Below are positions 27,600-64,000 of a DNA stretch of 64,000 bases, one piece after another (positions within the stretch are counted from its first letter, which is position 1; every line of letters starts with the position of its first letter). Made by a program: the position numbers and the translations under genes. Below the pieces are notes generated by a model, which worked only from the letters and a program-made list of their open reading frames with translations, had not been told where the DNA came from and did not search any database. The DNA comes from Escherichia coli (GTDB taxonomy: Bacteria; Pseudomonadota; Gammaproteobacteria; Enterobacterales; Enterobacteriaceae): assembly GCF_030013595.1 (NCBI RefSeq), contig NZ_CP122769.1. The stretch is one strand, 5' to 3'.

Positions 27600-27600
27600 T

Positions 27601-29515: not shown

Positions 29516-29518
29516 GCC

Positions 29519-43611: not shown

Positions 43612-43667
43612 GGGTGATGATGCCAACTTACTGATTTAGTGTATGATGGTGTTTTTGAGGTGCTCCA

Positions 43668-44523: not shown

Positions 44524-45189
44524 CTAACGACTACCACTTTTAAGTATGTATTGAGCCAGTTTTATATTCAGGCACACCATATTGCACTCTAGCTCTTTCA
44601 TCATTCTTGAAGAACTCTTAATTAAGTATTCTTCAAGTGGGCCAGCATATGCCCCTGATGTCACGATCGTTAGTTGCGTAAGAGGATGAGTCAAACTCTC
44701 AATGCCCTTCAGGATGTCATTCTGGACAGCAGCAATATAAACAGGCGAAGCCGCAATCAAATATTCATCATTCGGGCTGGACTGCATTAACTGGCTTATA
44801 GTTGCGCAACGGTTATGCTTACCTAGTGATTTTGTGATGGCTTTCCACCAGAGATCATGCCTGAATGGTACTTGATGAAATGTCGCCTCGTAAGAGGGCA
44901 CCCGATCTCGACTATTTAAAAACCCCATCCCGGCAGAGATTATCCACAACTCCAGATTTCTGGTTGAGTTTAAAATTTCCTTTGCCGTAGACCAGTGATT
45001 ACCTGAATACAAGGACAATGCCGGTACCGCCTGATTACTTCTGGCGTCGTCTACAATGTTACTCCAGGCATATGCTGCGTCGTCCGGGGTTTGTTTTGGA
45101 TCTATGTCCAATGTCGGCCAGACGTGGCCCTGATGATTCTTGCCCTTTGTACAGGAAGTGATTAAGTGTACTGAGCGTTCAGAGAACAT
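44524..45189 (-). CDS. hypothetical protein
   Basis: 221-aa ORF, no recognisable motif. Confidence 0.5.
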   Translation of the reverse strand: MFSERSVHLITSCTKGKNHQGHVWPTLDIDPKQTPDDAAYAWSNIVDDARSNQAVPALSLYSGNHWSTAKEILNSTRNLELWIISAGMGFLNSRDRVPSYEATFHQVPFRHDLWWKAITKSLGKHNRCATISQLMQSSPNDEYLIAASPVYIAAVQNDILKGIESLTHPLTQLTIVTSGAYAGPLEEYLIKSSSRMMKELECNMVCLNIKLAQYILKSGSR

Positions 45190-45246
45190 TATCTTCCTTA
45201 CATACCCATAGAACAGCTTTCTAAGAACGGTGGGCTCGCCTGAAAA

Positions 45247-45627
45247 TTACAAATCAGCCCCTTTCACGGCATCATTTTGATTCTTCGCGTCTGCCCCCAG
45301 TAAGATGACCGGTTTTCTGCATGACAGTGTTATTCCTAACAAACGCAACACAAAACCACGCCAGCCAGAGCAAATTTTTTCATTTGCTGCGTAAAGCCTA
45401 TTGTTTTCTCTTTTAAGCTTCGCCCACTCGTTACAGAGGGTAACATCATCAAGCGCTGTTATATGCTTCGCCTCACCTTCGACGATAACGGTATGGATAC
45501 CGTATGCTGTAAATCTCATACTATTTTCCAGAACCCAGTTGCGGTATTCGTCGAGTCCACCTTCGGAACCGGTAGCTCTGCGCCACATTTCAATTTGCTT
45601 GTGTGATGGGTCAAGTGTACTTGTCAT
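45247..45627 (-). CDS. hypothetical protein
   Basis: 126-aa ORF upstream of and co-directional with 44524-45189. Confidence 0.45.
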   Translation of the reverse strand: MTSTLDPSHKQIEMWRRATGSEGGLDEYRNWVLENSMRFTAYGIHTVIVEGEAKHITALDDVTLCNEWAKLKRENNRLYAANEKICSGWRGFVLRLLGITLSCRKPVILLGADAKNQNDAVKGADL

Positions 45628-45895
45628 TGAAGCCTCGTCTCAGCGATAACGCTTGAAATAGCCCGCTTTGGTCATCATGAAATTAGCCATCTGACTGGCG
45701 ATTTGATTGTATCTTACTCATAGTGCCCTACCTATAGGTTAAAAAGGGGCATTTTCGCTTTATAGCGTGTTCAGCAGCATCAATCCTCCCAAGAAAGGCT
45801 GGCTTATTAAGCCGGTCCATCATTTTCTGTATATCTCTCATCAATTTTTATATCCGCCCTGGAGTGCACCGTTCAAGCACACCGATTAGGCAGAT

Positions 45896-45954
45896 AGTCA
45901 CTAGTTAACTCTTTACTAGTGACTAAATTCCATTGATATACGTGACAACGTCAC
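45896..45954. repeat. palindromic elements in intergenic region
   Basis: agtcactagt-taactcttt-actagtgact (10-bp arms) and gtgac-aac-gtcac. Confidence 0.5.
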
Positions 45955-46220
45955 GTCATGAAAGCTTTTAAATGCCTATTTTTCATACAATGGGATTTAA
46001 TTAGGAGTAAATCCCATAGGCTTACATAAGGATGACAATTAAAAGCGTTAAATATCAACCAGATAGAATGATTACCCCCAATTAATGGGCTCATCACATT
46101 ATTTCACTGGCTGGGGTTATTGCTGGCATATCTGAAAGTGCTAATATGTTAGTCATTAGTAATTAGTAAAGCCTTTACTAAACGCGTTTCTACGTAAATT
46201 CTATAGGTTTTATAGGGTCC

Positions 46221-46301
46221 TGTCCGAGGACAATAAAGTTGTACACAAAGCACTAAAGTTGTAACCATTCTCAAAAAACGACGCTAATGTTGTATACTTA
46301 C
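46221..46301 (+). repeat. Tn7-like right-end terminus with TnsB-binding-site-like repeats
   Basis: TGTCCGAG-GACAATAAAGTTGTA... parallels the Tn7R terminus TGTGGGCG-GACAATAAAGTCTTA (from memory); further AAGTTGTA/ATGTTGTA repeats at 46251-46270 and 46282-46301; about 80 bp upstream of tnsA. Confidence 0.55.
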
Positions 46302-46378
46302 TGAATGTGTGGTTATAGGGTTGGAGACTATAAAATGCACATATAGGTACGTATCAATGTCGTTTTTAGGGTACGATC

Positions 46379-47221
46379 ATGGCTAGGGGTAGGCGTCTCA
46401 AATCCTATTTGGATTATGAAAATGCGCTAGGTGACGGCATAGGAGTGGGCTATGGCCAAAGTTATCAGCCCTGGCTTAGAGCTCAGGACGTTAAATCCCG
46501 TGGAAACCGTTCGATAGTCTTTGGCCTTAAGACGTTTCGAAACCATCATCTCCTTTCTTCTGTCGAAAGTAACTTTTTCTATCTGGCTGAGTTTAATGAC
46601 TCGGTGATTGATATCCGGGAACAATTCCCACTCTTTCCTCTCCGGCTTACCCAACAAATAGCAAATCATCTACATTTTCAACATCCTATGGTGAGGGGAG
46701 TAAGAGGAGTACCTGTCGAAGTTCTGAATGTTATGACAACCGATTTTTTACTGACCTTGAGAACTCCTGAAGGCGGACTTCGATACAAAGCTATAGCAGT
46801 AAAACATAACGAGAGCATACCTGAACGCGAAGCCCAAAAACTTGAAATAGAGAGGATGTTTTGGCAGTTGATTGATGTTGAGTTTCAAATTTATGTTGGC
46901 TCGGAACTCAATAACGTCGTCGGTAAAAACATTTGCTGGGCTACTTCTGTATTAAGAGATGGTTCTGAATTTTATGATAAATATCCTCTTGATAAAATCC
47001 TATGGAAGCTTAAACCAGATGTTTATCCCATAGTAGGACTACGTGCAATGATTTCATCAATCTTTGGGGTAGATGCACAAGAAGCGATGATGTTATTGCA
47101 GGCAATGATTGGATTAAAAATGATAAATGTTGATTTATCATATCCAATACTCGAAACCGGTCTGATAAAGATAATTTCCAATGACCACTATATAGGACTG
47201 AACGCAAATGGATATTATTAG
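46379..47221 (+). CDS. tnsA: Tn7-like transposase subunit TnsA
   Basis: 280 aa, position and size; overlaps tnsB start. Confidence 0.75.
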   Translation: MARGRRLKSYLDYENALGDGIGVGYGQSYQPWLRAQDVKSRGNRSIVFGLKTFRNHHLLSSVESNFFYLAEFNDSVIDIREQFPLFPLRLTQQIANHLHFQHPMVRGVRGVPVEVLNVMTTDFLLTLRTPEGGLRYKAIAVKHNESIPEREAQKLEIERMFWQLIDVEFQIYVGSELNNVVGKNICWATSVLRDGSEFYDKYPLDKILWKLKPDVYPIVGLRAMISSIFGVDAQEAMMLLQAMIGLKMINVDLSYPILETGLIKIISNDHYIGLNANGYY

Positions 47222-49331
47222 GAATTCAGTCTGGCTCTCTCAAGGCACTGATTTGCTTGCAGAGGGACTTTACCGTGTTTTGGATTTTGACAGAAAGGTC
47301 GATTTGTTAATTTTGTTTAAAATAAAATCAGAAAGAACGGGTAAGCCAATCCCTTTCTCATTTTCAATGTTTAAATATTATATTGAATCAAATAGCATAA
47401 CTTGTAAAGATTATATATATCCTTCATATATGTTAGTAGATGAGAAAGAATTAACAGATAAAGACAGAGGAAGGCGAGATGAAAATTACAATATCATTAA
47501 AGATCTTGTAGATGACAGAATGTTTCTGTTCGACTATGCATTACATAAAAAGTCGCACCTTTTAATGGATTACTCAAGAAATAAAAAAATATCACAATAT
47601 ACTATCAGAACGCTTCTGGCGTTGTATTGGCGACATGGGCAGGATATTTATGCATTGCTACCCGCATTCTCGAACTGTGGCGCCGCTGGGAAAAGTAGAA
47701 TCAAACATGAAATTAAACTTGGGAATTCCAAAAAAAACAGAGCATTACCTAATGAACGATCACGTGTTTTCATTCTTAATGAAAGAGATATAAATAATAT
47801 TAGAAAATCTCTCATTACGTATCATTATAAAGTTAACGGAGATACGATAAAGAAAACATTAGAGAGACATATTGATTTGTATTTTAGGGATGAAATTAAA
47901 ACAGCAAACCTAGAAAATAGAGCTCCATATGTTCCTTCTTTAAAACAATTTTCATACTGGAATAAAAAACTCTTCACTAAAGATTTCTCGATAAATAAGA
48001 AGAACACGAAAAAAGAAATAGACCTCAAAATGCGGGCGCTTTTAGGTAGTGTGGCTAATACAACTGTTTTGCCGGGTGATGTTTTCGAAATAGACTCAAC
48101 TGTCGCTGATGTACATCTTATTTCGAGTTTAAACAGACGAAAAGTCATTGGGCGTCCTACTATTTATACAGTGGTGGATCGTGCAACAAGAATGATTGTT
48201 GGCCTTCATGTTTCTTTATACCATGCTTCATGGCGAGCCGCCCGACAAGCGTTAGCAAATTGCTTTATGCCAAAAAAAGAATATTGTAGATTATTTGGAA
48301 TCTCTATTACTGATGATGATTGGCCTTGTTCTCACATTCCATTAACATTGATGTGTGACAACGGGGAGATGATTGGTCTTAAACCTCAGGAAGAGATGAC
48401 CCCCCTGACAAAACTTGAGTTTGCGCCAGTCGGTAGAGGCGACAGAAAAAGCATTGTTGAACGCTGTTTCGGCATTCTGAATGATGAGGTTATTCATAGG
48501 CTTATTGGAACAACACGAAGGGGAAAGATTGTTAAAGGAGAGCCAACACCGCAATCCAGGGCTTGTTTAACGATTCAGGAGGTCACGTCTTTACTGATTC
48601 GGGAGATACTTGCACATAATCAGAGAACGTATGAGGAACTGGCTTATATCAATCCCTTACTGATTGAAAATGATCTCGTAATATCACCAAAAAATAGTTG
48701 GATGATAAGCTTAAAGCACGGGAGATTCAGCGCAAGAGCCGTTGGGGCCGACGAAGTGATCGCACGATTGTTAATCCCTGTGAACGCTAACATTACCGCC
48801 GGTGGGATTCAGTACAATAATCTTTTTTATGAATGTGATCCTGAAATTGCATCAGGTGTCAGAGTATTTGGAAGAACCACTTGTGAAGCAAGAATAGATG
48901 ACAATTGCGTAGATTATATATATGTAAGATTTGACAAAAATAGCATTTTCAAAAAACATTACCTACTTAAGAAAAGAGATGTATTTAAAGGGAAAGCTCA
49001 TCTTGATACAGATGTAATGGCTGATTGGGTAGATACTCAAAAAGAAATTAATTTATTTACTCTGGATTCGCTCAGCAATATCAATAATAAAGATGAATTT
49101 AACAGGAAAGGTAACGAAAGATTAAATGAAATATACGAATCTCGCCGGGTACATGGTAAAGATATTAAAAAGAACAGAAAAAATGAACTTGATTCATTAG
49201 GGCGAACTCATGTTGCTAATGGAAGATCTGAACCCCTACTTCCTTCATCCAGTAATGTTCTGCTTTTGCCTGGCCGGGAGGAGAAACAAAGATGGTTAAA
49301 AGGTAAGAAGAAGACTGAGGACGCAGAATAA
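47208..49331 (+). CDS. tnsB: Tn7-like DDE transposase TnsB
   Basis: 707 aa; DDE core region (EIDSTVADV..VVDRATRMIVG..MCDNGEM). Confidence 0.85.
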   Translation: MDIIRNSVWLSQGTDLLAEGLYRVLDFDRKVDLLILFKIKSERTGKPIPFSFSMFKYYIESNSITCKDYIYPSYMLVDEKELTDKDRGRRDENYNIIKDLVDDRMFLFDYALHKKSHLLMDYSRNKKISQYTIRTLLALYWRHGQDIYALLPAFSNCGAAGKSRIKHEIKLGNSKKNRALPNERSRVFILNERDINNIRKSLITYHYKVNGDTIKKTLERHIDLYFRDEIKTANLENRAPYVPSLKQFSYWNKKLFTKDFSINKKNTKKEIDLKMRALLGSVANTTVLPGDVFEIDSTVADVHLISSLNRRKVIGRPTIYTVVDRATRMIVGLHVSLYHASWRAARQALANCFMPKKEYCRLFGISITDDDWPCSHIPLTLMCDNGEMIGLKPQEEMTPLTKLEFAPVGRGDRKSIVERCFGILNDEVIHRLIGTTRRGKIVKGEPTPQSRACLTIQEVTSLLIREILAHNQRTYEELAYINPLLIENDLVISPKNSWMISLKHGRFSARAVGADEVIARLLIPVNANITAGGIQYNNLFYECDPEIASGVRVFGRTTCEARIDDNCVDYIYVRFDKNSIFKKHYLLKKRDVFKGKAHLDTDVMADWVDTQKEINLFTLDSLSNINNKDEFNRKGNERLNEIYESRRVHGKDIKKNRKNELDSLGRTHVANGRSEPLLPSSSNVLLLPGREEKQRWLKGKKKTEDAE

Positions 49332-50779
49332 TGAATCTTATACGGCGCGTTTCAGCGATATATAAAGAACAGGAGTTACCTGAGTATCGTGGCAATCCCT
49401 TAATTGAAGCACTTCCTGAAGCGCTTACGGAAGATGAAGTACTTCTGGAAATGAGTTATTTCCCCGAAATTGACGAAAAAATCCGCTGGACTGCCCCGGC
49501 GAATGTTAGAGAGCAGTATGTCGAACGTATAAAGAAATTCCGTTGCCCTCAAACCAATCTTATCCAGGCTTATAAGATGATCTTACGGGCACTTAGGGAA
49601 AGCTATGCAGCTCGTAATCCTTTAAAAAGCGGAACAATTCAATATCTTCATTACTATGGAAATGAGCGTCCTGATATTGAGCCAGAAAGTGGATATTTTA
49701 AATCCCAGGCTGAAACTATTACGATAGTTGGAATGAGTGGTTCTGGAAAAACTACCATGATTGAGCAAGTCATGGAACATTTCCCTCAGATTATAGAACA
49801 CAGCAGCTATAAAGGAGTTTTTCCCGGCTTCAGTAAGCAAATTGTATGGGTAAAGATTAATTGTCCATACAATTCAAGTGTGAGAGACCTTTGTGAAGAG
49901 ATTTTACAAAAATTAGATGATGCAATTGGTATTGAACGAACTACACCTGAGATTAGAAATGGTGCTCTGGCTCGCCAGATTGCACAAAGAATTAAATCAT
50001 CATTTTTGGGTATCCTTGTTATTGATGAAATGCAGAGGCTTAAATTTTCAAGAACCGGGGGTGAGAGTAAGTTGATTGATTTTTTACATGAAATTGTAGA
50101 TTCCATGGGGGTATCTATGGTTTTTTGTGGAAATCATCCTTTTGACGAGACGCTGACAAAGAAAATGAGAATTGCCAGGCGGGCAGAGTCTGGTGGTTAC
50201 ATGAAAATTAAGAATGTTAGATACGATTCACAAGACTGGCAATCGTTTATTCATTATTTATGGCCATTACAATGGACAAATGTTGAAACTCCATTAAATG
50301 ATGAGTTAAACGAAAAATTATTCATTTTATCTAAAGGCAATATTGGATTGGCTCAGATGATTTATCGGGGGGCACAATTAAAGGTTATCGGTAGCGGCAA
50401 TGAAATCATCACTGGCGCAGTCTTGTCGGCCTCTGTACCGGTACTCGTGAGTCATACGGAGGAATATAAGGATACTCCACTCCCGGGGGCCGCGACTGAA
50501 GATGAGGAAGCTAAATGGCTCTCTGCATCTAATGAGGGTGATGCTTCGGCTAAAATCATGGCAGAGAAGTCCCTAAAGTCTTTGATCCCTGGGGATATAG
50601 ACAGGCCACAGCACAAGGAATTCGTAGGAAAAATAGACGAGGTTTTGCGCAATTTCGACGAGAAAATACTGTCTCTTGACCACGATCTTGTTATCAACAG
50701 AACAGCTGAAAAGAAAAATACCTACGATGCTCTTCAGCGTTGCGGGCTTATAAATATAGATCCACTTAATAAATTGTAA
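49331..50779 (+). CDS. tnsC: Tn7-like AAA+ ATPase TnsC
   Basis: Walker A GMSGSGKTT, Walker B VIDEMQ. Confidence 0.85.
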   Translation: MNLIRRVSAIYKEQELPEYRGNPLIEALPEALTEDEVLLEMSYFPEIDEKIRWTAPANVREQYVERIKKFRCPQTNLIQAYKMILRALRESYAARNPLKSGTIQYLHYYGNERPDIEPESGYFKSQAETITIVGMSGSGKTTMIEQVMEHFPQIIEHSSYKGVFPGFSKQIVWVKINCPYNSSVRDLCEEILQKLDDAIGIERTTPEIRNGALARQIAQRIKSSFLGILVIDEMQRLKFSRTGGESKLIDFLHEIVDSMGVSMVFCGNHPFDETLTKKMRIARRAESGGYMKIKNVRYDSQDWQSFIHYLWPLQWTNVETPLNDELNEKLFILSKGNIGLAQMIYRGAQLKVIGSGNEIITGAVLSASVPVLVSHTEEYKDTPLPGAATEDEEAKWLSASNEGDASAKIMAEKSLKSLIPGDIDRPQHKEFVGKIDEVLRNFDEKILSLDHDLVINRTAEKKNTYDALQRCGLINIDPLNKL

Positions 50780-50819
50780 TGAGGTAACAGTTCGTAACGG
50801 TCAAAGAGAGGTGTGGGAA

Positions 50820-52376
50820 ATGAGAATGTTGCCTGTTTTGCCTGATGAATCCTTGTTCAGCCGGTTTTGTCGGACAACTACCGTGTACGGTATGTCCCCA
50901 TCTTCTCTGTTAACGATCATTTTCAACAAACCTGATATGAACGTCCATCCAATTCTCAATTCAGGATTAAAGGCTATTTCTCTTCATACATCCGAAAGTG
51001 CAGATCAGCTCTGGCATGAACAGACTTTACTCCCTCTTTTTGCCTGGGCACTACCAATCAGTCGTAATGAAATTATGGATTTCAACACGACCCCTGCCAG
51101 GCTTAATCGATTGTGCCGCCTTAGTAATTTTTCACTAGGGCAGCGCACACTATTGAAGTTTTGCCCGGTTTGCGCTCGTGAAGATACTTTTCATTATGGT
51201 GTTACTTATTGGCATCTGGCGCATCAGCTTCATGGGGTTACAACCTGCCATCGGCATCCGGTAGCGCTTGAAAGCATCCATGTCCCTTCTTCACCGCACA
51301 TACGTATTGGACTGATGCCTCCTGTTTCGTATACAGAACAACTTAGCAATGAGATAGACTTCGATTTTGCTAAGTTTTGTTATGAGTCCCTAAATATAAT
51401 CAGAAGAAAAGATATTACACACCCCAATTACATGGATGTACTTAAAAAGTTGAATTTATTATCATTGGATGGAAATTTAAAGAAAAATGTATTCTACGCA
51501 CATGTTTATGCTAAGTGCCAGTTATTTGGGGAGGGTTCATCGGGACTTATACCAACATCCCTAACTGATTATCATTACTGGGAGCCTATACTCAAAGACA
51601 AATGTTGTCAGCATCCCACAAAGCATCTTTTGCTTTGTTATTGTTTGTTAAATACTTGCTGGCCAACGTATGCAGGAAGTCGTACTAATAAAAAGAAAGA
51701 AATCTTTAAAAGTCATAAGAAATACAGTTTTCATATAGTTGAAAATAATACTAGTGTTAGCAACCTTGGGAAGGAATTTAGTCGCAGCAGATGTTACATT
51801 AAAACACTTATTTATAAAAAATACCTGAGGGCGTTTAAGCGAAACACAAAAATTAATATATTCACTGAATTGCTTATCAAGTCTATGGCTGTAAGGGGGT
51901 TTAGTCTGGCATCCATAGCTGAGAAAAACTCATTATCGGAAGGAGCTGTATCCTCTGTAATTTCATCTTGTTACGGTTTATGCTCATGGCGTAAAAAATG
52001 TAAAAAAGATTCTTTAAGACGGCGTCATAAGCAGAAAATATTAAGATTTATACATAATCAATCCGTTTCTATAACACGAAAGTTAGTCAAAGAAAGTTGT
52101 TATGCAAGTTTCTATTGGCTAAATAAACATGAATGTGACTGGCTTAATTCCTGTCTTCCTAAAACAATACGATGCTATAAAAATAAAAGAGTAGACTGGA
52201 GCGAGAGAGATATTATCTCATCATCATTAATAAATGATGTTTTATCTCAGGGGCAGTACTCGATGTCACTTACAAGTCTAGATGCTTTACTGGGAGGGCA
52301 TGGCTGGCTTTTGAAATACAGAGATAAACTACCAATGACAATGATACTTCTCAGAAAAATGGAACTAATTAAATAA
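50820..52376 (+). CDS. tnsD: TnsD/TniQ-family target-selection protein
   Basis: N-terminal LPDESLFSRF and zinc finger CPVC..H..CHRH; ATG 50820 with gagagg RBS. Confidence 0.7.
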   Translation: MRMLPVLPDESLFSRFCRTTTVYGMSPSSLLTIIFNKPDMNVHPILNSGLKAISLHTSESADQLWHEQTLLPLFAWALPISRNEIMDFNTTPARLNRLCRLSNFSLGQRTLLKFCPVCAREDTFHYGVTYWHLAHQLHGVTTCHRHPVALESIHVPSSPHIRIGLMPPVSYTEQLSNEIDFDFAKFCYESLNIIRRKDITHPNYMDVLKKLNLLSLDGNLKKNVFYAHVYAKCQLFGEGSSGLIPTSLTDYHYWEPILKDKCCQHPTKHLLLCYCLLNTCWPTYAGSRTNKKKEIFKSHKKYSFHIVENNTSVSNLGKEFSRSRCYIKTLIYKKYLRAFKRNTKINIFTELLIKSMAVRGFSLASIAEKNSLSEGAVSSVISSCYGLCSWRKKCKKDSLRRRHKQKILRFIHNQSVSITRKLVKESCYASFYWLNKHECDWLNSCLPKTIRCYKNKRVDWSERDIISSSLINDVLSQGQYSMSLTSLDALLGGHGWLLKYRDKLPMTMILLRKMELIK

Positions 52377-52387
52377 GAGGGAGTTAT

Positions 52388-53314
52388 ATGGTTTACGAAA
52401 ATGAATTGTGGCACAGTTTTCTTCTGCGTTCACAGATAATGTATAACTTATCCAATTGCAGGAACATAATATCAAAGCATGGCGCACTAAGGTACGATGC
52501 CTTTCCTCGTTTCGAACTGATTGATATGTACAAATTGCATAGCTTGCAGGATATATATGACATTCTTGCCACTAGAAATGGTTATATACTAACTTCCAAT
52601 ATAGTGTCGTTATCTTCTGGTGTTTACGGGTATTTTAACGCTGTTGAAGATGCCTGTCGGAAAAATTTTCACATAACTAATTCATATCCATTGGTAAACA
52701 TCTCAAACATTCGTTACTGTCACAAATGTATTGTTGAAGATATACACTCTAAAGGCATTGGTTATCTGCGTCATAGATGGTTGTTTGAATCTAAATGTGC
52801 AGTTCATAGTACCAGTTTATATGAGGTTTGTTTTGATAACTATTTGAATGCAGTGAAAGGACTTAGTGACTTAATTATAAGTGGAATAAATCCTCATGGT
52901 TATTGTTCCCTTGTGGTTGACGTTTCAAACCCTTTCAAAAATCCAGTGTATATATTACCATGTGCACGTAATAAAATTTTAAAATGGATTTCGGACAATA
53001 AAAATATGCTGATTTACTTTCTCTTTGATCTCTTCAAATGTAAGTCGCATTCAAGTTTATCTAAGGTTATCGAAGTCAAGATAATGCATGATAGATATAT
53101 TTCTGCGGTGTTCAAGATGTTAAGTGAAGTTAATTTTTGTAATTTCAACTCATTTATTTCTGATATTTTTGAGGACGTAAGTTATGCCTCTATCGGACTT
53201 GATGATTATTCTGTTAATGTGCATTTTCTCAGGCTAAGGGCTGCAGATTGTAAATTTTGCCAGTTGAATGGTAAATATTTTTGCTCACTTTACAATGTAA
53301 AATTTCTTCGCTAA
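52388..53314 (+). CDS. second TniQ-like protein (short)
   Basis: N-terminal ENELWHSFLLRS and C-x2-C-x22-C-x2-H motif (CHKC...CAVH). Confidence 0.5.
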   Translation: MVYENELWHSFLLRSQIMYNLSNCRNIISKHGALRYDAFPRFELIDMYKLHSLQDIYDILATRNGYILTSNIVSLSSGVYGYFNAVEDACRKNFHITNSYPLVNISNIRYCHKCIVEDIHSKGIGYLRHRWLFESKCAVHSTSLYEVCFDNYLNAVKGLSDLIISGINPHGYCSLVVDVSNPFKNPVYILPCARNKILKWISDNKNMLIYFLFDLFKCKSHSSLSKVIEVKIMHDRYISAVFKMLSEVNFCNFNSFISDIFEDVSYASIGLDDYSVNVHFLRLRAADCKFCQLNGKYFCSLYNVKFLR

Positions 53315-53586
53315 TTTCACTTCATTTATAAAATACTAAGAAAGCTAGTTAGATAAGGTTTTATATTTTGACTGGGGCAGGAATAAATTATCACTCATAG
53401 AGTTTCCCTGGGGGTTACCACCTGTGTATGATGCCGGTTAGCAACAACGTCTAAAAGACCTGCGATCACGTGGGTCCCTCTCCAGCAAAGGGGCAAGGGG
53501 TGCTATATAACGGTGTACTGCTTACCCAATACGGCCTTGTATTTGAAAGATGCCGCATCTTGGCAGGATTCGTATTACAGCCTATA

Positions 53587-53629
53587 GTCTGTTAATGAGC
53601 ATTACAGCCTATATGCTGTAAATCCCTGC
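53587..53629 (+). promoter_or_regulatory. operator-like inverted repeats upstream of hipB paralogue
   Basis: ACAGC-N6-TCTGT at 53587-53602 and ACAGC-N6-GCTGT at 53614-53629, same type as hipBA operators. Confidence 0.45.
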
Positions 53630-53666
53630 GTTATGCTTGTTAACTCGTCGATACGGAAGGTCACTT

Positions 53667-53966
53667 ATGAACACTCAATACGCTTTGAAGACTTTGAATC
53701 AGTTACGTCCTGTTTTAATCGGCTTTCGCAAAGCCAATGGACTGACGCAAAAAGATGTTTCTGAACGTTTGGGTATAACACAGCAAACTTATGCCCGACT
53801 AGAGGCCAACCCTGCAAGTGCGGGTTTTGAGCGTTTGTTTAGGGTGTTCAGCGTCCTTGGAGTGGAGATCGTACTTTCATCCAGGGAACCATTGTCAGAT
53901 GCAAAGCCCGAATACGGAGCTATGCACAATTATTCTTCACTTCCAGCCAGGCGGGAGAAATGGTGA
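53667..53966 (+). CDS. HipB-like HTH regulator (orphan paralogue, no adjacent hipA)
   Basis: MNTQYALKTLNQLRPVLIGFRKANGLTQKDVSERLGITQQTYARLE closely parallels hipB at 40003. Confidence 0.75.
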   Translation: MNTQYALKTLNQLRPVLIGFRKANGLTQKDVSERLGITQQTYARLEANPASAGFERLFRVFSVLGVEIVLSSREPLSDAKPEYGAMHNYSSLPARREKW

Positions 53967-54529
53967 CGCCTGGCGCTTCCCGGTCTAATTTTTCTTCAAC
54001 AAGATTAACCCCTTAGCGGCCTGAAGTATCAGGTTGCGATAGAGCCTTTCATTTCTTCTGTTATGTTAAATACACCATTTTGAGCTATTTCGCTCGGCCT
54101 TAAATTATCTCTTCATTCTTCAGTGAAAATTTTATGTCGATCACATTATCGATGAATTTAGGAAATAATCCGTAAATGAAAATCTATCTTCTTTTAAATT
54201 CATCAGTGTCAGTAGCAAATATTACGCATAAAAGAATGGTTATTATTATCATTTAAATTATAAAGCTCATGAGTCAATTCCAAAAAATATAATAAGCATT
54301 GAAATCATTACCCGTGATTCTGGAGTTTTAACTTTGCCATGTAACCAACCACAAGTTAGTTTCCGGTGTTTTGAGGGGCAGTAAAGTTCTGAAAGCGCGA
54401 CCAGATCATAATCCCGAAATGTCGTTAAGATATTCTGAATAACGGTTATCCCTGCTTGTTGGCAGGCATTTGAAAATATATTTTGTATTCAGGTTGCAGC
54501 AAAACGCTTTCTTACACACAGGACTTCAT

Positions 54530-56355
54530 ATGCGGCTCAGAAAATTAAAACTGAAAAACTTCAGAGGCTACAGAAACTCTACTGAAATCATTATTGATGA
54601 AAGCATGACGGGTATTGTCGGTCGTAATGACTTTGGGAAATCAACGCTTCTGGAAGCGCTGGCTATTTTTTTTGAAACAGAAGGAATGAAGGCTGACAAG
54701 AATGACATGAACTGTTTCAGCCTAAGAGAAGGGGACGGCCGTTTTGAAATAGCCTGTGAATTTGATGACCTGCCCGATTTTATCATGATCGACGACAGGG
54801 TGCAGACCACGCTCGCCTCAGAACATCTGCTGAATGAGGACGGCAATTTTGAAATCGTCAAAACGTTTAAAGCAACGACCTCAGGAAAACCGGAGCAGAC
54901 CTGCATCCGCTGCATCCACCCGGATGAGGAGCCCCTGAGAAATTTACTGGGCATGAAAATTTCTGAGCTCAAGGCGGTGGGAAAAGAAGTTGAAAAAAAT
55001 GTGGCGGATAAACGCACTGCATCGTTATGGCGTCAGGCCATCAGGGAAGCCGCAGCCCCCTATACCTGTTCGGAAATTATGCTGGATGTCGATAAAGAGT
55101 TCGGAACCGACACAAAATCATTATGGGGTAAGATCCTCGATTTGCTGCCCACGTATGCGATTTTCAAAGCCGACAGGGAAAGCAGCGACGGGGATTCCGA
55201 AGCTAAAAACCCCTTACAGCAGGCCGTAAAAGACGCTCAGGCTGCGCTGCAGGACAAAATTACAGCGCTGGAAAATGAGATTCAGGACAGCGTCCTGGAT
55301 GTCGCACAGAGAACGCTGGATAAATTACGTGAAATGGCCCCCGAACTCGCCAGTGAACTGACTCCACGATTTAAGGAGAAACCCAAGTGGACCTTCAATT
55401 TCACCCTGGACGGGGAAAATGGCATCCCCATCAATAAGCGCGGCAGCGGGATAAGGAGGCTTATCCTGTTGAATTTTTTCGGGCTGAGGCTGAAAAGAAT
55501 GTCGCGGGGACGCCCAGAAATGTGATTTATGCCATAGAGGAGCCTGAAACGTCACAGCATCCGAACTATCAGATGATGCTGATGAAAGCGTTACTGGCAC
55601 TGGCAGGCCAGCCGCACCGTCAGATTATCGTCACCACCCATGTCCCGGCGCTGGCCGGATTAATCCCTGTCGAAGGCGTACGTTATGTTACCCGAAATGA
55701 GGCGGGTGAACCCGTAGTAAAAATGCCGGATGACGCAGTGCTGAAGGAAGCCACTGAAAGCCTGGGGGTGCTGCCAGAGACCGGTATGGAAAGGGCGCAG
55801 GGGATTGTTCTGGTAGAGGGAAAGTCGGATGTTACTTTCCTGAGGCATGCGGCCAGTTCATTAAAACAGTCAGGTGCGCTGCCAGCCTCTCTGGAGGACG
55901 TGAAAATAGTGCCAGTCCTCATAGGAGGGTGTGGTAGCGTCAAACACTGGGTTACATTGAATCTGGCCAAAGATCTGGGGCTTCCCTGGTGCGTATTTCT
56001 GGACTCCGATATTGGGGGAGACCCTGCACAGGTTCTGTCCATCCAGAAGCGTAAAAAAGAAGTAGAGGAGGCCGGTAAGGTATTTTTCGCTACGCGCAAA
56101 CGTGAGATAGAAAACTATCTGTGCCCGGATCTTATCGAGGAAATTACTGGTGTAGCCGTCACGTTTACGGACACCTGTGACGCTAAAAAAATAATCGGCC
56201 GGGCTGTGGGAATGAAACCCGATAATGTACTAGATAAATTCTGGCCTCAGATGACATCAGAAAGAATCATCTCAAGATCAACCTATCATGACGGAACGCA
56301 GGAGAGAAGCGAGCTGGTTGAGATCCTGAGCGACATTGTATCCATGACGAGATAA
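54530..56355 (+). pseudogene. OLD-family ATP-dependent nuclease (AAA ATPase + Toprim), apparent frameshift
   Basis: Walker A GRNDFGKST; downstream frame has IEEPETSQHP and Toprim VLVEGKSDV / VFLDSD; frames switch at the T6C run 55474-55480. Confidence 0.65.
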
Positions 56356-56453
56356 TGTATTAAATAAGCATCTCAGGTGCATATATTCCGGTCCTCAACA
56401 AAGGACCGGAGTACAGAGTAGTAAAAACCCGAAATTAAGGTAATGACTCCAAC

Positions 56454-56957
56454 TTATTGATAGTGTTTTATGTTCAGATAATGCCCGATGACTTTGTCAT
56501 GCAGCTCCACCGATTTTGAGAACGACAGCGACTTCCGTCCCAGCCGTGCCAGGTGCTGCCTCAGATTCAGGTTATGCCGCTCAATTCGCTGCGTATATCG
56601 CTTGCTGATTACGTGCAGCTTTCCCTTCAGGCGGGATTCATACAGCGGCCAGCCATCCGTCATCCATATCACCACGTCAAAGGGTGACAGCAGGCTCATA
56701 AGACGCCCCAGCGTCGCCATAGTGCGTTCACCGAATACGTGCGCAACAACCGTCTTCCGGAGCCTGTCATACGCGTAAAACAGCCAGCGCTGGCGCGATT
56801 TAGCCCCGACATAGCCCCACTGTTCGTCCATTTCCGCGCAGACGATGACGTCACTGCCCGGCTGTATGCGCGAGGTTACCGACTGCGGCCTGAGTTTTTT
56901 AAGTGACGTAAAATCGTGTTGAGGCCAACGCCCATAATGCGGGCGGTTGCCCGGCAT
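56454..56957 (-). CDS. insB: IS1 InsB
   Basis: Near-identical to copy 1 InsB. Confidence 0.9.
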
Positions 56958-57151
56958 CCAACGCCATTCATGGCCATATCAATGATTTTCTGGTGCGTAC
57001 CGGGTTGAGAAGCGGTGTAAGTGAACTGCAGTTGCCATGTTTTACGGCAGTGAGAGCAGAGATAGCGCTGATGTCCGGCGGTGCTTTTGCCGTTACGCAC
57101 CACCCCGTCAGTAGCTGAACAGGAGGGACAGCTGATAGAAACAGAAGCCAC
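56876..57151 (-). CDS. insA: IS1 InsA
   Basis: Near-identical to copy 1 InsA (one substitution F to L). Confidence 0.95.
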
Positions 57152-57299
57152 TGGAGCACCTCAAAAACACCATCATACACTAAATCAGTAAGTTGGCAGC
57201 ATCACCGAAATTAATCGGGTTTGAATTGTATAAAGATTAACCGACTCCCGCGCCCAGGAACGATGTAAAATCACGCTTGTCGTGACATTTCTACAATGT

Positions 57300-57650
57300 T
57301 TACTTTTGACTATCAAGCCATTTATTCATCTGCTCAATTTCACCTTTTTGAGCTTTAATGATGTCCTGCGCGAGCTTTCTCATTTTCGGATCTTTTCCGT
57401 ATTTGAGCTCGGTCTCAGCCATTGCTATTGCCCCTTCATGGTGCGCTACCATGCCTTTCGCAAAAGCCTTGTCGGGATCGGACTCATTTACGGCAGCCAT
57501 CATTTTGTCATGCATGTCTTTCATGCCAGCCATATATTCCTGTGACGAAGCCGAGGTAGACATATCAGTCATTTTCATTTCTGAATGTTCTGCTGAAATC
57601 GCTGGCAGGGATAACATTAATACTGCAAATAAAGTGTTTCTGGCTTTCAT
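57300..57650 (-). CDS. DUF305-like periplasmic Met/His-rich protein
   Basis: Signal peptide; MVAHHEGAIAMAE..LAQDIIKAQKGEIEQMNKWL resembles DUF305. Confidence 0.6.
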   Translation of the reverse strand: MKARNTLFAVLMLSLPAISAEHSEMKMTDMSTSASSQEYMAGMKDMHDKMMAAVNESDPDKAFAKGMVAHHEGAIAMAETELKYGKDPKMRKLAQDIIKAQKGEIEQMNKWLDSQK

Positions 57651-57797
57651 AAAAAATATCCTTTTAGCGTTGATGCCCGTTAACTGTAGCAGAATCTGAT
57701 AAAAATGCCCCCTGTAGGGGGCAAAGATGTTGCCATATATCCGGTTACGGAAAAATCTATCAAGGAAATAAGGACAGCACAGATACTTCCCTCGCCG

Positions 57798-58229
57798 TCA
57801 GCCTGCACTGAGCATGCGACGATGCGCTTCGGCCATGGCCTGATGTGGGCCAGACTGACCGTTATTCATAAATTCATGGGCAACTGCAGCTCTTTCATGC
57901 TCATTCATTGCCGCTAATGACTTCGACGGCCCGGTAGGGGAAACGGTCTGACTTCCCATCATCCTCTGATGACTTTCCACCATTTTCTGGTGCGCATCCG
58001 CCGACCCGTTCGTCATGGTTTCATGAGCAATAATGGCCTGTTCATGCTGGTCCATACCGGTCATACGAGGAGCAGTCCCCTGGATCCCGACAGGAGCCGC
58101 AGCAGACTGCATCTGGTGAGCAGGAGCCTGTGCATTGTTGACGCGATCATGGATATTCACGGTTTCAGTGGCCCAGGCCGATGAAATTAAACCAAAGCCC
58201 AGCAAAGATGCTAATACGATATTTTTCAT
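57798..58229 (-). CDS. silE: SilE periplasmic silver-binding protein
   Basis: 143 aa from MKNIVLASLLGF..; His/Met-rich repeats; the ORF-track start at 58346 is an upstream extension. Confidence 0.9.
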   Translation of the reverse strand: MKNIVLASLLGFGLISSAWATETVNIHDRVNNAQAPAHQMQSAAAPVGIQGTAPRMTGMDQHEQAIIAHETMTNGSADAHQKMVESHQRMMGSQTVSPTGPSKSLAAMNEHERAAVAHEFMNNGQSGPHQAMAEAHRRMLSAG

Positions 58230-58448
58230 GATAACTCTCCATTTCTGAATTAGTGATGTCCGGGGAAGTACAACCGGTGTTTTCAGTTCCATAACTGAAA
58301 CAAGTTCGGCAGCGTTTATTTCTCCGGAAGAGGGCTGGATATTCATTTCCTGGCGTACTCTGACGCCGGGTATTGATGAAGCAATCCAGCCTTCCTGATA
58401 AGTTGCACTAATTATATCGAATGGCTTCTGTTTGCTGCATGACAGGCT

Positions 58449-58466
58449 AATGACATCTTTGTCATT
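58449..58466 (-). promoter_or_regulatory. SilR/CusR-type box upstream of silE
   Basis: aATGACAtctTTGTCATt palindrome. Confidence 0.55.
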
Positions 58467-58479
58467 TACATCTTTATTT

Positions 58480-59955
58480 TCAGCATTGGGTTTCCGGGAT
58501 CATTTTCTCCAGTCTGGGCACGGATAAGATAAAACGCGTGGAGCGTACGTCTGATTCCACCTGCACTCTTCCGTGATGTGCTTCCACGATTGACTTCACA
58601 ATCGCAAGGCCGATGCCGCTGCCTTCTCCTTTGCGTTGTCTGGATGGATCCACCCGATAAAAACGGTCAAACAGCCTTGATAAATGTTCTTCAGGGATCG
58701 GTTTCCCCGGATTTTCAATCACAAGGTCAAAAAAGCTCTCCTGCTCTCTTATTGAGACGGTGATTGCCTGTCCCTCCGGGGTATAACGCAGGGCATTGGA
58801 TAACAGATTATTGATCGCCCTTCTGAACATTTGTGGATCTCCCTCAACCAGGCAGGGCATCCCGTTAAATTTGAGCGTGATATTGCGTTCTTCGGCCCAG
58901 GCTTCGAAAAACTCGAAGACTTTCATGACTTCCGCTCTGAGGTCAAACATGACCCTGTCAGGTATCAGCTGATTATTATCTGCCTGTGCCAGGAACAGCA
59001 TATCGCTGACCATTTTGGTCATCCGGTTATACTCTTCAAGACTGGAATAGAGGACATCCTCAAGTTCCCTCTGTGTTCGATCCTGACTCAGTGCGATTTC
59101 AGTCTGCGTCACCAGATTGGTGATGGGCGTTCTGATCTCATGCGCGATATCGGCAGAGAAATTGGCCTGGCGGGTAAAGACATCCTCAATCTTTCCAATC
59201 ATATGATTGAACGAGATAACCAGTTGCTCCAGCTCAATGGGAACGCGTGTCGGTTCCAGTCGCGCATCAAGATTCTCGGAGGTGATGTTTTTAATGGCAT
59301 TGCTGACATTACGAAGGGGCAGGTGCCCCTGACGGACAGCGATTCGAATGATCAGAACAATCAACAGGCTTATCACGACGGCAATCGCAATCAGGTTCTT
59401 TTTCAGCGCATCGAGGTAATGGAGATGGAAATTAATGGATAGGCCAGTCAGCATGACATAGTTCTGCTGTTTGCCCTGAAATATCGCCTGACCAGAGGAG
59501 GCGATAATCCTGTATGTTTCCATCTTCATTTCGGACCCGGTATCCATCGGTCCCGCAGGATCCTCCACCGTCCAGAGAAAGACATCCCGTGCGCGGCTGT
59601 GCTCGCTAAAATCTGCTGAATTCACTGCCGGGCGTAGTGCCGCCCCCTGAGCTGAGCTAAAGAGCACTTCACCCCTGGGATTGAGGAGCAAAAGGGCAAC
59701 GTTGCGGTAGCTGGCAATTGATTCCTTTATTTTGCTTATTTTTTTATCATCCGGATCCACCGGGGACTGCAGTATACGGTTCAGTGTGGTGCTGATTTGT
59801 TGAAGATCGCTGACATCCTGCTCGGCAAAATGATTTTCAACAGAATGCAGCATAAACCAGGTGAAGGCGATAAAAGCCAGTATCGTGGACAGGCTGATAA
59901 AAAAGGTCAGCCGCAGAGCGAGTGAGAAAGGGCGTCTGGAAGGTTTGCTATGCAT
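58480..59955 (-). CDS. silS: SilS sensor histidine kinase (CusS-like)
   Basis: Two TM segments, H-box [10 protein letters not shown], ATPase motifs. Confidence 0.9.
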
Positions 59956-60628
59956 CCGGGACCTCCAGCATGTAGCCCACGCCCCGGACTGTCTGGATCA
60001 GCTTTGTCCCGTAATCGTTGTCTATTTTAGCGCGGAGTCGCTTTACTGCGACATCGATCGCATTAGTGTCGCTGTCAAAATTCATGTCCCAGACCTGAGA
60101 GGCAATCAGGGAGCGGGGAAGAACCTCTCCCTGATGGCGAATGAAGAATTCCAGCAGGCTGAACTCTTTACTGGTGAGTACAATGCGGTTTCCGGCGCGA
60201 CTGACTTTTCTGGATACGAGATCAATCGAGAGGTCAGCCACCTTAAACTGGCTTTCCGTGATCATCGTGTTTCCCCGCCTCAGAAGGGTTCTCACCCGGG
60301 CGAGCAGTTCGGCAAACGCAAAGGGTTTAACCAGATAATCGTCCGCACCCAGTTCCAGTCCTTTGACCCTGTGTTCGATCGTGCCGAGGGCTGTCAGCAG
60401 TAAGACCGGCATACCCTTTCCGGCAGTGCGCAGCATGCGGATGATATCCCAGCCGTTCACATCAGGTAGCATGATATCCAGAATGACTAAATCATACTCG
60501 GCTGTCATGGCGAGATGATATCCGGTAAGACCATTATCAGCGTGATCCACTACGAACCCTGCCTCTGTAAGCCCTTTGCTGAGATATTCACCTGTTTTAA
60601 TTTCGTCTTCGACGATCAATATTTTCAT
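59948..60628 (-). CDS. silR: SilR response regulator (CusR-like, OmpR family)
   Basis: MKILIVEDE receiver domain, winged-helix C-terminus. Confidence 0.9.
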
Positions 60629-60695
60629 CTTGCTCCCCGGCTGGCTGCTAATGTCATTCTATTGCGCCCACGATCGTTATCAACGGATTACAGCA

Positions 60696-60716
60696 AAAAT
60701 GACAACATTGTCATTA
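60696..60716 (+). promoter_or_regulatory. SilR/CusR box in silRS-silCFB divergent promoter
   Basis: aaaATGACAAcaTTGTCATta. Confidence 0.65.
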
Positions 60717-60817
60717 TCCTGTCACCCGGCAAACAGAGAGCGTTAGGTAAAGTACCCCTATCAATACTCTGGACTTCGTTTGAACCATTTACCAGGTCTG
60801 CCTGTACGAGAAGCGTT

Positions 60818-62203
60818 ATGTTCAAATTAAAATTACTCAGCATCAGTACCATATTCATCCTGGCTGGTTGTGTTTCTCTGGCACCTGAATATCAGCGTCC
60901 GCCAGCTCCGGTTCCCCAGCAGTTTTCATTGTCTAAAAACAGTCTGACGCCTGCGGTAAACAGCTATCAGGATACGGGCTGGCGAAACTTTTTTGTCGAT
61001 CCCCAGGTCAGCAGGCTGATCGGTGAAGCCCTGAATAATAACCGTGATTTGAGAATGGCTGCCCTGAAGGTTGAAGAGGCCCGGGCCCAGTTCAACGTCA
61101 CGGATGCAGATCGTTATCCCCAACTGAATGCCTCATCCGGGATCACATACAACGGTGGTCTGAAAGGTGACAAGCCGACCACACAGGAGTACGACGCGGG
61201 TCTGGAGCTCAGCTATGAGCTCGATTTTTTTGGCAAACTTAAGAACATGAGTGAGGCTGATCGCCAGAACTACTTTGCCAGCGAAGAAGCCCGTCGTGCC
61301 GTACACATCCTGCTGGTCTCCAACGTTTCACAGAGCTATTTCAGCCAGCAACTGGCGTACGAACAACTCCGTATTGCGCGGGAAACGCTGAAAAATTATG
61401 AACAGTCCTATGCTTTCGTTGAGCAACAGCTCGTGACCGGGAGTACGAACGTTCTGGCACTTGAACAGGCGAGAGGACAAATCGAAAGTACCCGCGCCGA
61501 AATAGCCAAACGAGAAGGCGATCTGGCTCAGGCAAACAATGCCCTGCAACTGGTGCTGGGAACGTACCGCGCACTTCCGTCAGAAAAAGGGATGAAAGGC
61601 GGGGAGATCGCACCAGTAAAATTGCCACCAAATCTATCTTCACAAATTTTGCTGCAGCGACCGGATATTATGGAAGCGGAATATCAGCTGAAAGCGGCTG
61701 ATGCCAATATTGGCGCAGCGCGAGCGGCCTTTTTCCCCTCCATTACCCTGACCAGTGGTCTTTCCGCAAGCAGTACGGAGCTGTCAAGCCTGTTTACGTC
61801 AGGAAGTGGAATGTGGAATTTTATCCCTAAAATTGAAATTCCTATTTTTAATGCTGGCAGGAATAAAGCCAATCTGAAGCTGGCTGAAATTCGCCAGCAA
61901 CAATCGGTGGTTAATTACGAACAAAAAATTCAGTCAGCCTTTAAGGATGTTTCCGACACGCTTGCGCTGCGCGACAGCCTTAGCCAGCAACTTGAGTCAC
62001 AGCAGCGTTATCTTGATTCACTTCAGATAACTCTCCAGCGTGCCAGAGGATTATATGCAAGTGGTGCTGTCAGTTACATCGAAGTGCTGGATGCAGAACG
62101 TTCCCTCTTCGCTACGCAGCAAACCATTCTCGATCTTACCTATTCCCGACAGGTTAACGAAATTAATCTGTTTACCGCGCTGGGTGGCGGTTGGGTAGAG
62201 TAA
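60818..62203 (+). CDS. silC: SilC outer-membrane efflux channel (CusC-like)
   Basis: 461 aa from MFKLKLLSISTIFILAGC lipoprotein signal; the ORF-track start at 60515 is an extension. Confidence 0.9.
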   Translation: MFKLKLLSISTIFILAGCVSLAPEYQRPPAPVPQQFSLSKNSLTPAVNSYQDTGWRNFFVDPQVSRLIGEALNNNRDLRMAALKVEEARAQFNVTDADRYPQLNASSGITYNGGLKGDKPTTQEYDAGLELSYELDFFGKLKNMSEADRQNYFASEEARRAVHILLVSNVSQSYFSQQLAYEQLRIARETLKNYEQSYAFVEQQLVTGSTNVLALEQARGQIESTRAEIAKREGDLAQANNALQLVLGTYRALPSEKGMKGGEIAPVKLPPNLSSQILLQRPDIMEAEYQLKAADANIGAARAAFFPSITLTSGLSASSTELSSLFTSGSGMWNFIPKIEIPIFNAGRNKANLKLAEIRQQQSVVNYEQKIQSAFKDVSDTLALRDSLSQQLESQQRYLDSLQITLQRARGLYASGAVSYIEVLDAERSLFATQQTILDLTYSRQVNEINLFTALGGGWVE

Positions 62204-62230
62204 ATTTATTTAATTAATCAGGAAATTAAA

Positions 62231-62584
62231 ATGCGTAATTCACTTAAAGCCGTTTTATTTGGTGCCTTCTCTGTCATGTTTTCTGCCGGTCTTCATGCTG
62301 AAACACATCAGCATGGCGATATGAATACTGCCAGTGATGCTTCGGTACAGCAAGTTATCAAGGGCACCGGTGTCGTTAAAGACATTGATATGAATACTAA
62401 GAAAATCACCATTTCGCATGAAGCAATTCCAGCGGTGGGCTGGCCTGCAATGACCATGCGCTTTACTTTTGTTAATGCAGACGATGCTATTAATGCCCTG
62501 AAAACAGGCAACCATGTCGATTTCTCGTTTATTCAGCAGGGCAATATCTCCTTACTCAAAAGCATTAACGTGACGCAGTCCTGA
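62231..62584 (+). CDS. silF: SilF periplasmic metallochaperone (CusF-like)
   Basis: 117 aa with signal peptide and MTMRF motif. Confidence 0.85.
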   Translation: MRNSLKAVLFGAFSVMFSAGLHAETHQHGDMNTASDASVQQVIKGTGVVKDIDMNTKKITISHEAIPAVGWPAMTMRFTFVNADDAINALKTGNHVDFSFIQQGNISLLKSINVTQS

Positions 62585-62697
62585 TTGGCTGTCCGGAGCG
62601 ATTACATCCTGTGCGCCTGTACATTCACATAGGTATATGTGTGAGTTAACCGTCAGGCGCATATGCCAGGTGTTTTGATTTTTTAGCGGAAAATTGT

Positions 62698-63990
62698 ATG
62701 GCTTCTTTAAAGATAAAATATGCTGCAATAATTATCAGCAGCCTCATAGCAGGGGGGCTGATATCGGTTACTGCCTGGCAGTATGTAAACTCATCACAAA
62801 AAACAGTACAAACCGAACAAAAGGCACCGGAGCGAAAGGTACTTTTCTGGTATGACCCGATGAAACCGGATACCAAATTTGATAAACCCGGAAAATCGCC
62901 CTTTATGGATATGGACCTGGTGCCAAAATATGCTGATGACAGTGGCGATAAAAGCAGTGGCGGGATCCGTATCGACCCAACCCAGGTTCAGAATCTGGGA
63001 TTAAAAACGCAAAAAGTCACGCGAGGAATGCTGAATTATTCTCAGACAATCCCGGCTAATGTCAGCTATAACGAGTATCAGTTTGTTATTGTGCAGGCGC
63101 GTTCTGACGGGTTTGTCGAAAAAGTCTACCCCATGACGATTGGCGATCATGTGAAGAAGGGGACGCCACTTATCGATATTACCATTCCGGACTGGGTGGA
63201 AGCACAGAGTGAATTCCTTCTGTTATCCAGCACCGGTGGTACTTCCACGCAAATTAAAGGCGTTCTGGAACGGCTTCGCCTGGCAGGTATGCCGGAAGAG
63301 GATATTCAGAGACTGCGTTCTACCCGGAGCATTCAGACCCGTTTTACCATTAAAGCACCTATTGATGGTGTCATTACTGCATTTGACCTGCGCACCGGCA
63401 TGAATATTTCGAAAGATAAGGTGGTGGCTCAGATTCAGGGAATGGACCCGGTCTGGATCAGCGCTGCAGTGCCAGAATCTATTGCCTATCTGCTGAAAGA
63501 TACGTCGCAGTTTGAAATTTCGGTACCGGCTTATCCGGATAAAACATTCCATGTCGAAAAATGGAATATTCTTCCCAGCGTGGATCAGACAACCCGTACG
63601 CTTCAGGTCCGTCTCCAGGTTTCTAATAAGGATGAGTTTCTCAAGCCGGGCATGAATGCCTATCTGAAACTGAATACCAGAAGCCAGGAGATGCTGCTGA
63701 TACCAAGCCAGGCCGTTATCGATACCGGCAAAGAACAGCGCGTGATTACTGTTGATGATGAAGGCAAGTTTGTGCCGAAACAGATCCACGTTCTGCATGA
63801 GTCACAGCAACAGTCCGGCATCGGCTCCGGCCTGAATGAAGGCGATACCGTGGTGGTCAGTGGCCTGTTCCTCATTGACTCTGAAGCCAATATTACGGGC
63901 GCACTGGAACGTATGCGCCACCCTGAAAAAACAGAAAGCAGTATGCCAGCAATGTCTGACCAGCCTGTAAATATGCATTCAGGGCACTGA
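62698..63990 (+). CDS. silB: SilB membrane fusion protein (CusB-like)
   Basis: 430 aa; N-terminal TM anchor. Confidence 0.9.
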   Translation: MASLKIKYAAIIISSLIAGGLISVTAWQYVNSSQKTVQTEQKAPERKVLFWYDPMKPDTKFDKPGKSPFMDMDLVPKYADDSGDKSSGGIRIDPTQVQNLGLKTQKVTRGMLNYSQTIPANVSYNEYQFVIVQARSDGFVEKVYPMTIGDHVKKGTPLIDITIPDWVEAQSEFLLLSSTGGTSTQIKGVLERLRLAGMPEEDIQRLRSTRSIQTRFTIKAPIDGVITAFDLRTGMNISKDKVVAQIQGMDPVWISAAVPESIAYLLKDTSQFEISVPAYPDKTFHVEKWNILPSVDQTTRTLQVRLQVSNKDEFLKPGMNAYLKLNTRSQEMLLIPSQAVIDTGKEQRVITVDDEGKFVPKQIHVLHESQQQSGIGSGLNEGDTVVVSGLFLIDSEANITGALERMRHPEKTESSMPAMSDQPVNMHSGH

Positions 63991-64000
63991 GGAGACGACG

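Follow-up and report, generated by a model that had tools for sequence, protein, structure and literature searches.

Simple insertions of IS1 flanked by target duplications of 8 or 9 bp have been textbook knowledge since 1978, and IS1 prefers AT-rich targets. In the composite transposon Tn9, the IS1 copies are in direct orientation. The reference IS1 is 768 bp long, carries insA and insB, produces InsAB' and generates duplications of 8 or 9 bp (PMC12428005). Loss of such duplications by adjacent deletion or by recombination between IS copies is common (PMC11708052). The Tn7/pco/sil element is itself mobile between IncHI plasmids and the yhiN-yhiM site of the E. coli chromosome (PMC8417528, PMC6211086).

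We analyzed a stretch of 64,000 nucleotides from E. coli (the window), which represents an IncHI2 plasmid and contains two inverted copies of IS1. The second of these (copy 2) lies inside a Tn7-like sil/pco (copper/silver-resistance) transposon of about 34 kb. We conclude with very high confidence that copy 2 is a simple IS1 insertion, most simply an inherited one, and that copy 1 is a separate event with an associated deletion, the pair having neither arrived as a composite nor undergone inversion.

Positions 35840 to 64000 of the window are 99.97% identical to the Salmonella enterica IncHI2 plasmid CP117034, and pGPT21-001_1 is also very close. The left end of the transposon was placed at about 46221 (TGTCCGAGGACAATAAAGTTGTACA..., TGT...), the point where similarity to the element-free plasmids pAMSH1 and pEGY1-MCR-1 stops and similarity to the yhiN copy of E. 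coli E308 starts. From there the genes follow in the order tnsA, tnsB, tnsC, tnsD, an HTH gene, an OLD-family ATPase gene, IS1, copM, silE, silSR, silCFBA, silP, and pco. The gene order is the same in the Tn7-like sil/pco transposons of pMG101, R478, and the E. coli yhiN-yhiM islands, with 99.45% identity to R478 and 99.96% to E308. The present allele differs in having IS1 between the ATPase gene and copM, whereas most copies are without it. Elsewhere in the plasmid, the tellurite-resistance region (21007 to 23094) holds a 62-nt stretch in three diverged copies (61-82% identical), which probably reflect paralogous genes of the TerD family.

Copy 2 and its parts are as follows.

56439 to 57206, minus strand: IS1 copy 2, with IRR at the low-coordinate (left) end, IRL at the right end and its genes on the minus strand.
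56431 to 56438, no strand assigned: left copy of the 8-bp target-site duplication, GAAATTAA, present as a single copy in the R478 empty site.
57207 to 57214, no strand assigned: right copy of the 8-bp target-site duplication, GAAATTAA, an exact match to the left copy.
56439 to 56461, minus strand: IRR, 23 bp, an imperfect terminal inverted repeat, GGTAATGACTCCAACTTATTGAT read inward.
57184 to 57206, minus strand: IRL, 23 bp, of canonical sequence, GGTGATGCTGCCAACTTACTGAT read inward, ending in ...ATCAGTAAGTTGGCAGCATCACC at 57206.
56876 to 57151, minus strand: insA, an ORF of 91 aa with a GTG start, zinc ribbon and HTH (PF03811, 1.3e-21; PF12759, 4.7e-31).
56454 to 56957, minus strand: the insB' frame, an ORF of 167 aa, DDE_Tnp_IS1 (PF03400, E = 2.3e-78).
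56894 to 56900, minus strand: the A6C (AAAAAAC) programmed -1 frameshift motif at IS1 position 307, which fuses insA to insB'.

The element is intact over its 768 bp, the length of about 768 bp that characterizes IS1, and begins with GGTAATGACTCC at the IRR end and finishes with GGCAGCATCACC at the IRL end. Its terminal repeats are imperfect and start with GGTGATG (IRL, GGTGATGCTGCCAACTTACTGAT) and GGTAATG (IRR, GGTAATGACTCCAACTTATTGAT), as those of IS1 do. Both reading frames carry IS1-specific domains: the InsA product matches the Pfam models Zn_ribbon_InsA and HTH_Tnp_IS1, and the insB' frame matches the IS1 transposase domain. A conceptual -1 shift at the A6C motif yields an open InsAB' transposase of 232 aa. 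PGAP labels the same element in E. coli E308 as "programmed frameshift", and homologous elements in public records are annotated as transposases of the IS1A/IS1B family. With its sequence intact, copy 2 may be capable of transposition.

Compared with the IS1A and IS1B isoforms known from E. coli, R100, and R478-type IncHI2 plasmids, copy 2 differs at only 2-5 bases from annotated copies. It shares with the family the 768-bp length, the 23-bp imperfect ends, insA, insB', the A6C motif, the 232-aa InsAB' and an 8-bp duplication in an AT-rich target. There is no difference of substance; its haplotype CCATCCTG (over eight variable positions) is a minor variant, intermediate between the two commoner haplotypes found at this site. 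Copy 2 is a standard IS1 insertion of an already known kind and is not unusual.

The original prediction described a 768-bp IS1 flanked by 8-bp direct repeats, a claim to be abandoned if exact boundary analysis gave non-matching flanks. The analysis bore it out: the flanks match exactly, as GAAATTAA at 56431-56438 and again at 57207-57214. A repeat search returned a 10-nt direct repeat, CCGAAATTAA, with a spacing of 776 around the element; ten nucleotides rather than eight are reported because the IS1-terminal CC equals the two target bases that precede GAAATTAA. With a full-length IS1 of 768 bp, the duplication of copy 2 is 8 bp, one of the two lengths that IS1 generates, on both sides, with one copy in the empty site. 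As a control for chance, we scanned 63,216 window positions for identical 8-mers around a 768-bp interval and found them at only 2 loci, copy 2 and position 19946. The chance rate of such pairs is about one extra locus per 63,000 positions, and the pair at 19946 is a chance match.

The flanking DNA had also been predicted to be contiguous ancestral sequence. We rebuilt the empty site by deleting IS1 and one repeat in silico and used the resulting 1200-bp query against E. coli records and plasmids. Coverage of at least 80% was reached in 655 E. coli records and in 301 plasmids, with occupied alleles counted as well. Many records, such as R478, APEC O1 pAPEC-O1-R, and the chromosomes of O104:H4, contain the empty site as one uninterrupted piece at 99.9% identity. 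R478 aligns to window positions 44381-56438 and 57205-62263, and the two R478 ranges overlap by 10 bp; its empty site reads aaaaacccgaaattaatcgggttt and holds a single GAAATTAA. The contiguity of the copy 2 flanks is thus borne out both by the single repeat of R478 and by the unbroken site in hundreds of other records.

The surroundings of the target include the following features.

54530 to 56355, plus strand: the upstream neighbor, an OLD-family AAA ATPase gene (AAA_15 and OLD-like TOPRIM), converging on the insertion site.
56425 to 56432, no strand assigned: left arm of a hairpin, AAACCCGA, taken from folds of the intact R478 site and split by IS1.
57215 to 57222, no strand assigned: right arm of the same hairpin, TCGGGTTT, likewise from folds of the intact R478 site and split by IS1.
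57300 to 57650, minus strand: the downstream neighbor, copM (a DUF305 metallochaperone), converging on the insertion site, with silE beyond it.

IS1 interrupts no gene here, having entered the intergenic gap where the ATPase gene and copM converge. In the intact R478 site, the target folds into a hairpin with an 8-bp stem and a 6-nt loop, AATTAA, and it is this loop that IS1 entered. Since UUUUU follows the intact hairpin on the copM (minus) strand, the split hairpin may be a candidate copM terminator. A simple terminator scan of the empty site did not call the hairpin and found nothing, so the idea of a copM terminator derives from the folds and what they imply. Because no coding sequence is interrupted and at most a candidate terminator is split, the insertion is probably near-neutral.

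The ATPase gene, which encodes 608 aa in its intact form, is itself split in the window into two frames, 54470-55525 and 55522-56355. The split stems from a 1-bp deletion at about 55468-55473, where the window has six T's and both sister plasmids have seven. The gene may be a true pseudogene, or the missing T may be a sequencing error in the homopolymer.

Other records show further insertions in this neighborhood, at most a few hundred bp away. An independent IS1 lies in the 3' end of the ATPase gene in pMCR_170_D1, with a 9-bp duplication, TGAAACCCG, at the window equivalent of 56213-56221. An independent element of the IS5 family sits between the hairpin and copM in another record, with a 9-bp duplication at the window equivalent of 57268-57276. 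IS903B occurs in the copM-silE spacer of a further record.

From known IS1 biology, InsAB' would have made a staggered cut in the target and joined both ends of IS1 to it, and repair of the stagger would have duplicated GAAATTAA on each side. The target was the AT-rich hairpin loop in the gap between the convergent ATPase gene and copM.

We searched for the occupied allele with a 240-bp query spanning the left junction of copy 2. The junction was recovered at 240/240 bases in eight plasmids, all IncHI2 and from Salmonella, E. coli, and Raoultella. It was likewise complete in 26 E. coli records: 25 chromosomes and the plasmid CP031547. A 27th E. coli record with junction coverage of at least 80%, E1433, represents a different IS1 event: there, a separate IS1 lies inside copM with an associated deletion, and the rest of the island is lost. 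The two-piece IS1 matches among the empty-site matches listed all recur in the junction lists and are therefore all in the same orientation. About 3-4% of the carriers of the site are occupied by IS1. In the chromosome of E. coli E308, the Tn7-like element adjoins yhiN and is colinear with, and 99.96% identical to, window positions 46220-64000, including IS1.

Other IncHI2 plasmids and the chromosomes of E. coli strains have the same junction in the same orientation, so copy 2 is most simply an inherited allele and not a fresh event. Judged from these sequences, the occupied junction would most simply represent one ancestral insertion, an old inherited allele that travels with the Tn7-like element. 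We tentatively extend this to a fuller reading, which we treat as a serious possibility: the occupied allele may be a single-origin marker of one copy of the 34-kb transposon that moved recently between the chromosomal yhiN site of E. coli and IncHI2 plasmids (Salmonella, E. coli, Raoultella), and the inverted IS1 copies of this plasmid lineage may exchange sequence by gene conversion.

The interior of the element varies among records. Four internal haplotypes of IS1 were detected at the copy 2 site, one of which is shared by the window and pGPT21-001_1. To account for them, gene conversion or point mutation after the insertion, errors of assembly, or repeated insertion must be invoked. CP117034 and the window differ at eight positions in 28 kb, five of which are clustered in IS1 copy 2 (20601-21368 of the CP117034 locus). 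These five correspond to IS1 positions 298, 301, 304, 393, and 396, and all of them match copy 1. IS1 is reported at three places in CP117034, and the cluster may reflect either gene conversion from another IS1 copy or homogenization, by short-read polishing, of the middle of the repeat, where reads are least anchored.

The length of the duplication also varies. In pHNTS53-1 (Raoultella) and a twin record, an extra C at the IRL junction gives a 9-bp duplication, CGAAATTAA, at the same site; the IS1 of pHNTS53-1 (near locus positions 1100 and 1866) is a full 768 bp and has the same haplotype as the E. coli copies. The original duplication might accordingly have been 9 bp long (CGAAATTAA), in which case the CCC run where IRL meets the target has since lost one C or the homopolymer was miscalled. 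We consider this unlikely, even though pHNTS53-1 and its twin have a perfect 9-bp repeat around a full-length element and span 1977 bp rather than 1976 in the empty-site search, the independent IS1 of pMCR_170_D1, 220 bp away, made a 9-bp duplication, and nine base pairs is the classical IS1 duplication (Grindley 1978, as cited in PMC12428005). The 8-bp form was found in all eight other carriers inspected (the window, CP117034, OY754830, E308, cq9, p17S-208, pLS61394-MCR, and pSDC-F2_12BHI2), and IS1 duplications of 8 bp are documented as well as those of 9 bp (PMC12428005). Both 9-bp records come from one study and could equally be erroneous or represent a derived state.

Descent from one insertion also has to be weighed against the idea that the site is a hot spot for IS1, struck repeatedly and independently, so that the occupied alleles would not go back to one event. 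This would suit the occurrence of four haplotypes at one site, with duplications of both 8 and 9 bp, the independent strikes on the neighborhood in other records (IS1 twice more, an IS5-family element, and IS903B), and the preference of IS1 for AT-rich targets. We nevertheless judge it improbable: the left junction is identical (240/240 bases) and in one orientation in 34 of 34 occupied records, and the whole Tn7-like element together with its IS1 is 99.96% identical between the window plasmid and the E308 chromosome. An occupancy of about 3-4% is unlike what would be expected of a strong hot spot, and the differences among haplotypes are few and clustered, as conversion would give.

Copy 2 also has to be considered in relation to the other IS1. 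The features concerned are the following.

43613 to 44380, plus strand: IS1 copy 1, 768 bp, inverted relative to copy 2, with no target duplication and with C8A in its IRL.
44381 to 56438, no strand assigned: the segment between the IS1 copies, 12,058 bp, consisting of 1.84 kb of IncHI2 backbone and the left end of the transposon (tnsABCD, the HTH gene, and the ATPase gene).

A repeat scan of the whole window identified copy 1 as the sole other IS1. The two copies are inverted, separated by 12,058 bp and identical at 762 of 768 positions (99.2%); both are intact and they differ at six bases and one amino acid (F81L). The likeness to composites of the Tn9 type lies in two IS1 copies bracketing a DNA segment. 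The differences are that the copies are inverted here and direct in Tn9, that one copy has its own duplication, that the outer flanks are unmatched, and that the bracketed DNA is in its ancestral place.

The outer flanks of a composite would be expected to match, but here they read AGCCTTCCG to the left of copy 1 and GAAATTAAT to the right of copy 2. Nor is the enclosed DNA foreign to its place, as the cargo of a composite would be: R478, a plasmid without either IS1 copy, is colinear with the 12,058-bp segment in the same orientation and at 99.45% identity, and the backbone part of the segment is also colinear with pEGY1-MCR-1. A composite-transposon origin was ruled out by the non-matching outer flanks and by the colinearity of the inner segment with R478. 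The statement in the original prediction that the inverted pair is not a canonical composite transposon therefore stands, on the duplication that copy 2 has for itself, the unmatched outer flanks, and the R478-colinear segment. The step from the repeats to this statement holds for origin only, and the pair may yet come to move as a composite transposon.

A past inversion between the copies was likewise ruled out, as the duplication of copy 2 is intact and the segment is in its ancestral orientation. An inversion would have split the copy 2 duplication between the two copies; the window shows neither mixed duplication halves nor a segment inverted relative to its relatives. All three sequenced sister plasmids have the segment in the same orientation. 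A synthetic inverted-junction query (L1 joined to the reverse complement of L2) was covered to at least 80% by no record among 72,556 plasmid records.

Copy 1 has a different history. No target duplication was found at its ends, where the flanks are AGCCTTCCG and GGCAGCATC, and these flanks lie 7,809 bp apart in pEGY1-MCR-1; a simple insertion was ruled out for copy 1 on these two grounds. Copy 1 replaces positions 22501-30309 of the pEGY1-MCR-1 locus that we retrieved, and the 7,809 bp missing here encode a helicase, an H-NS-family protein, and several hypothetical proteins. For the left flank of copy 1, the retrieved R478 region offered no comparison, as the two share no nucleotide similarity. 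Two reading frames are cut at the edges of the element: a 426-nt ORF on the left is truncated to 150 nt, and a 456-nt ORF on the right is also truncated. In the pAMSH1-type lineage, an IS1 in the same orientation is associated with a deletion that encloses the one at copy 1 and extends 148 bp further to the left and 109 bp further to the right.

Copy 1, and not copy 2, fits the pattern of insertion, deletion, and extension described for IS-adjacent deletions (PMC11708052). Its deletion could be a transposase-mediated adjacent deletion or the outcome of recombination between two direct IS1 copies. Position 8 of its IRL (window 43620) gives GGTGATGATGCC where the canonical sequence is GGTGATGCTGCC; the change is common to CP117034 and OY754830 and is not found in pAMSH1. 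This C8A substitution might weaken that end for transposition.

Copy 1 originated as an event of its own in the backbone of the plasmid, and the IS1-associated deletion of 7.8 kb removed its duplication. With separate events for copy 2 and copy 1, the pair is therefore two independent inverted IS1 insertions and did not arrive as a unit. That the inverted copies instead form a functional unit, a composite transposon or an invertible segment of which the assembly captured one isomer, is very hard to credit: the copies are 99.2% identical, inverted, 12 kb apart and both equipped with intact transposase genes, and the five copy 1 bases at positions 298-396 of the CP117034 copy 2 are compatible with recombination between copies, but this pattern is also explicable by short-read polishing across repeats, the copy 2 duplication is intact, the outer flanks do not match, order and orientation inside are ancestral and the same in all three sister plasmids, the plasmid collection holds no inverted junction, the cargo (backbone genes and tnsABCD) has no selectable value as a unit, and the outer IRL of copy 1 carries the C8A change.

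Read as a simple inherited insertion, copy 2 cleanly marks the lineage of one sil/pco transposon allele that IncHI2 plasmids and E. coli chromosomes share. The intact duplication of copy 2 excludes a past inversion or a composite origin of the 12-kb segment, and the annotation of the region stays simple. At the same time, the inverted IS1 copies could give rise to assembly errors and, on rare occasions, to inversions that would separate tnsABCD from the sil/pco cargo. If gene conversion between the copies is true, inversion isomers in which the Tn7-like element is parted from its transposition genes probably occur at low frequency.
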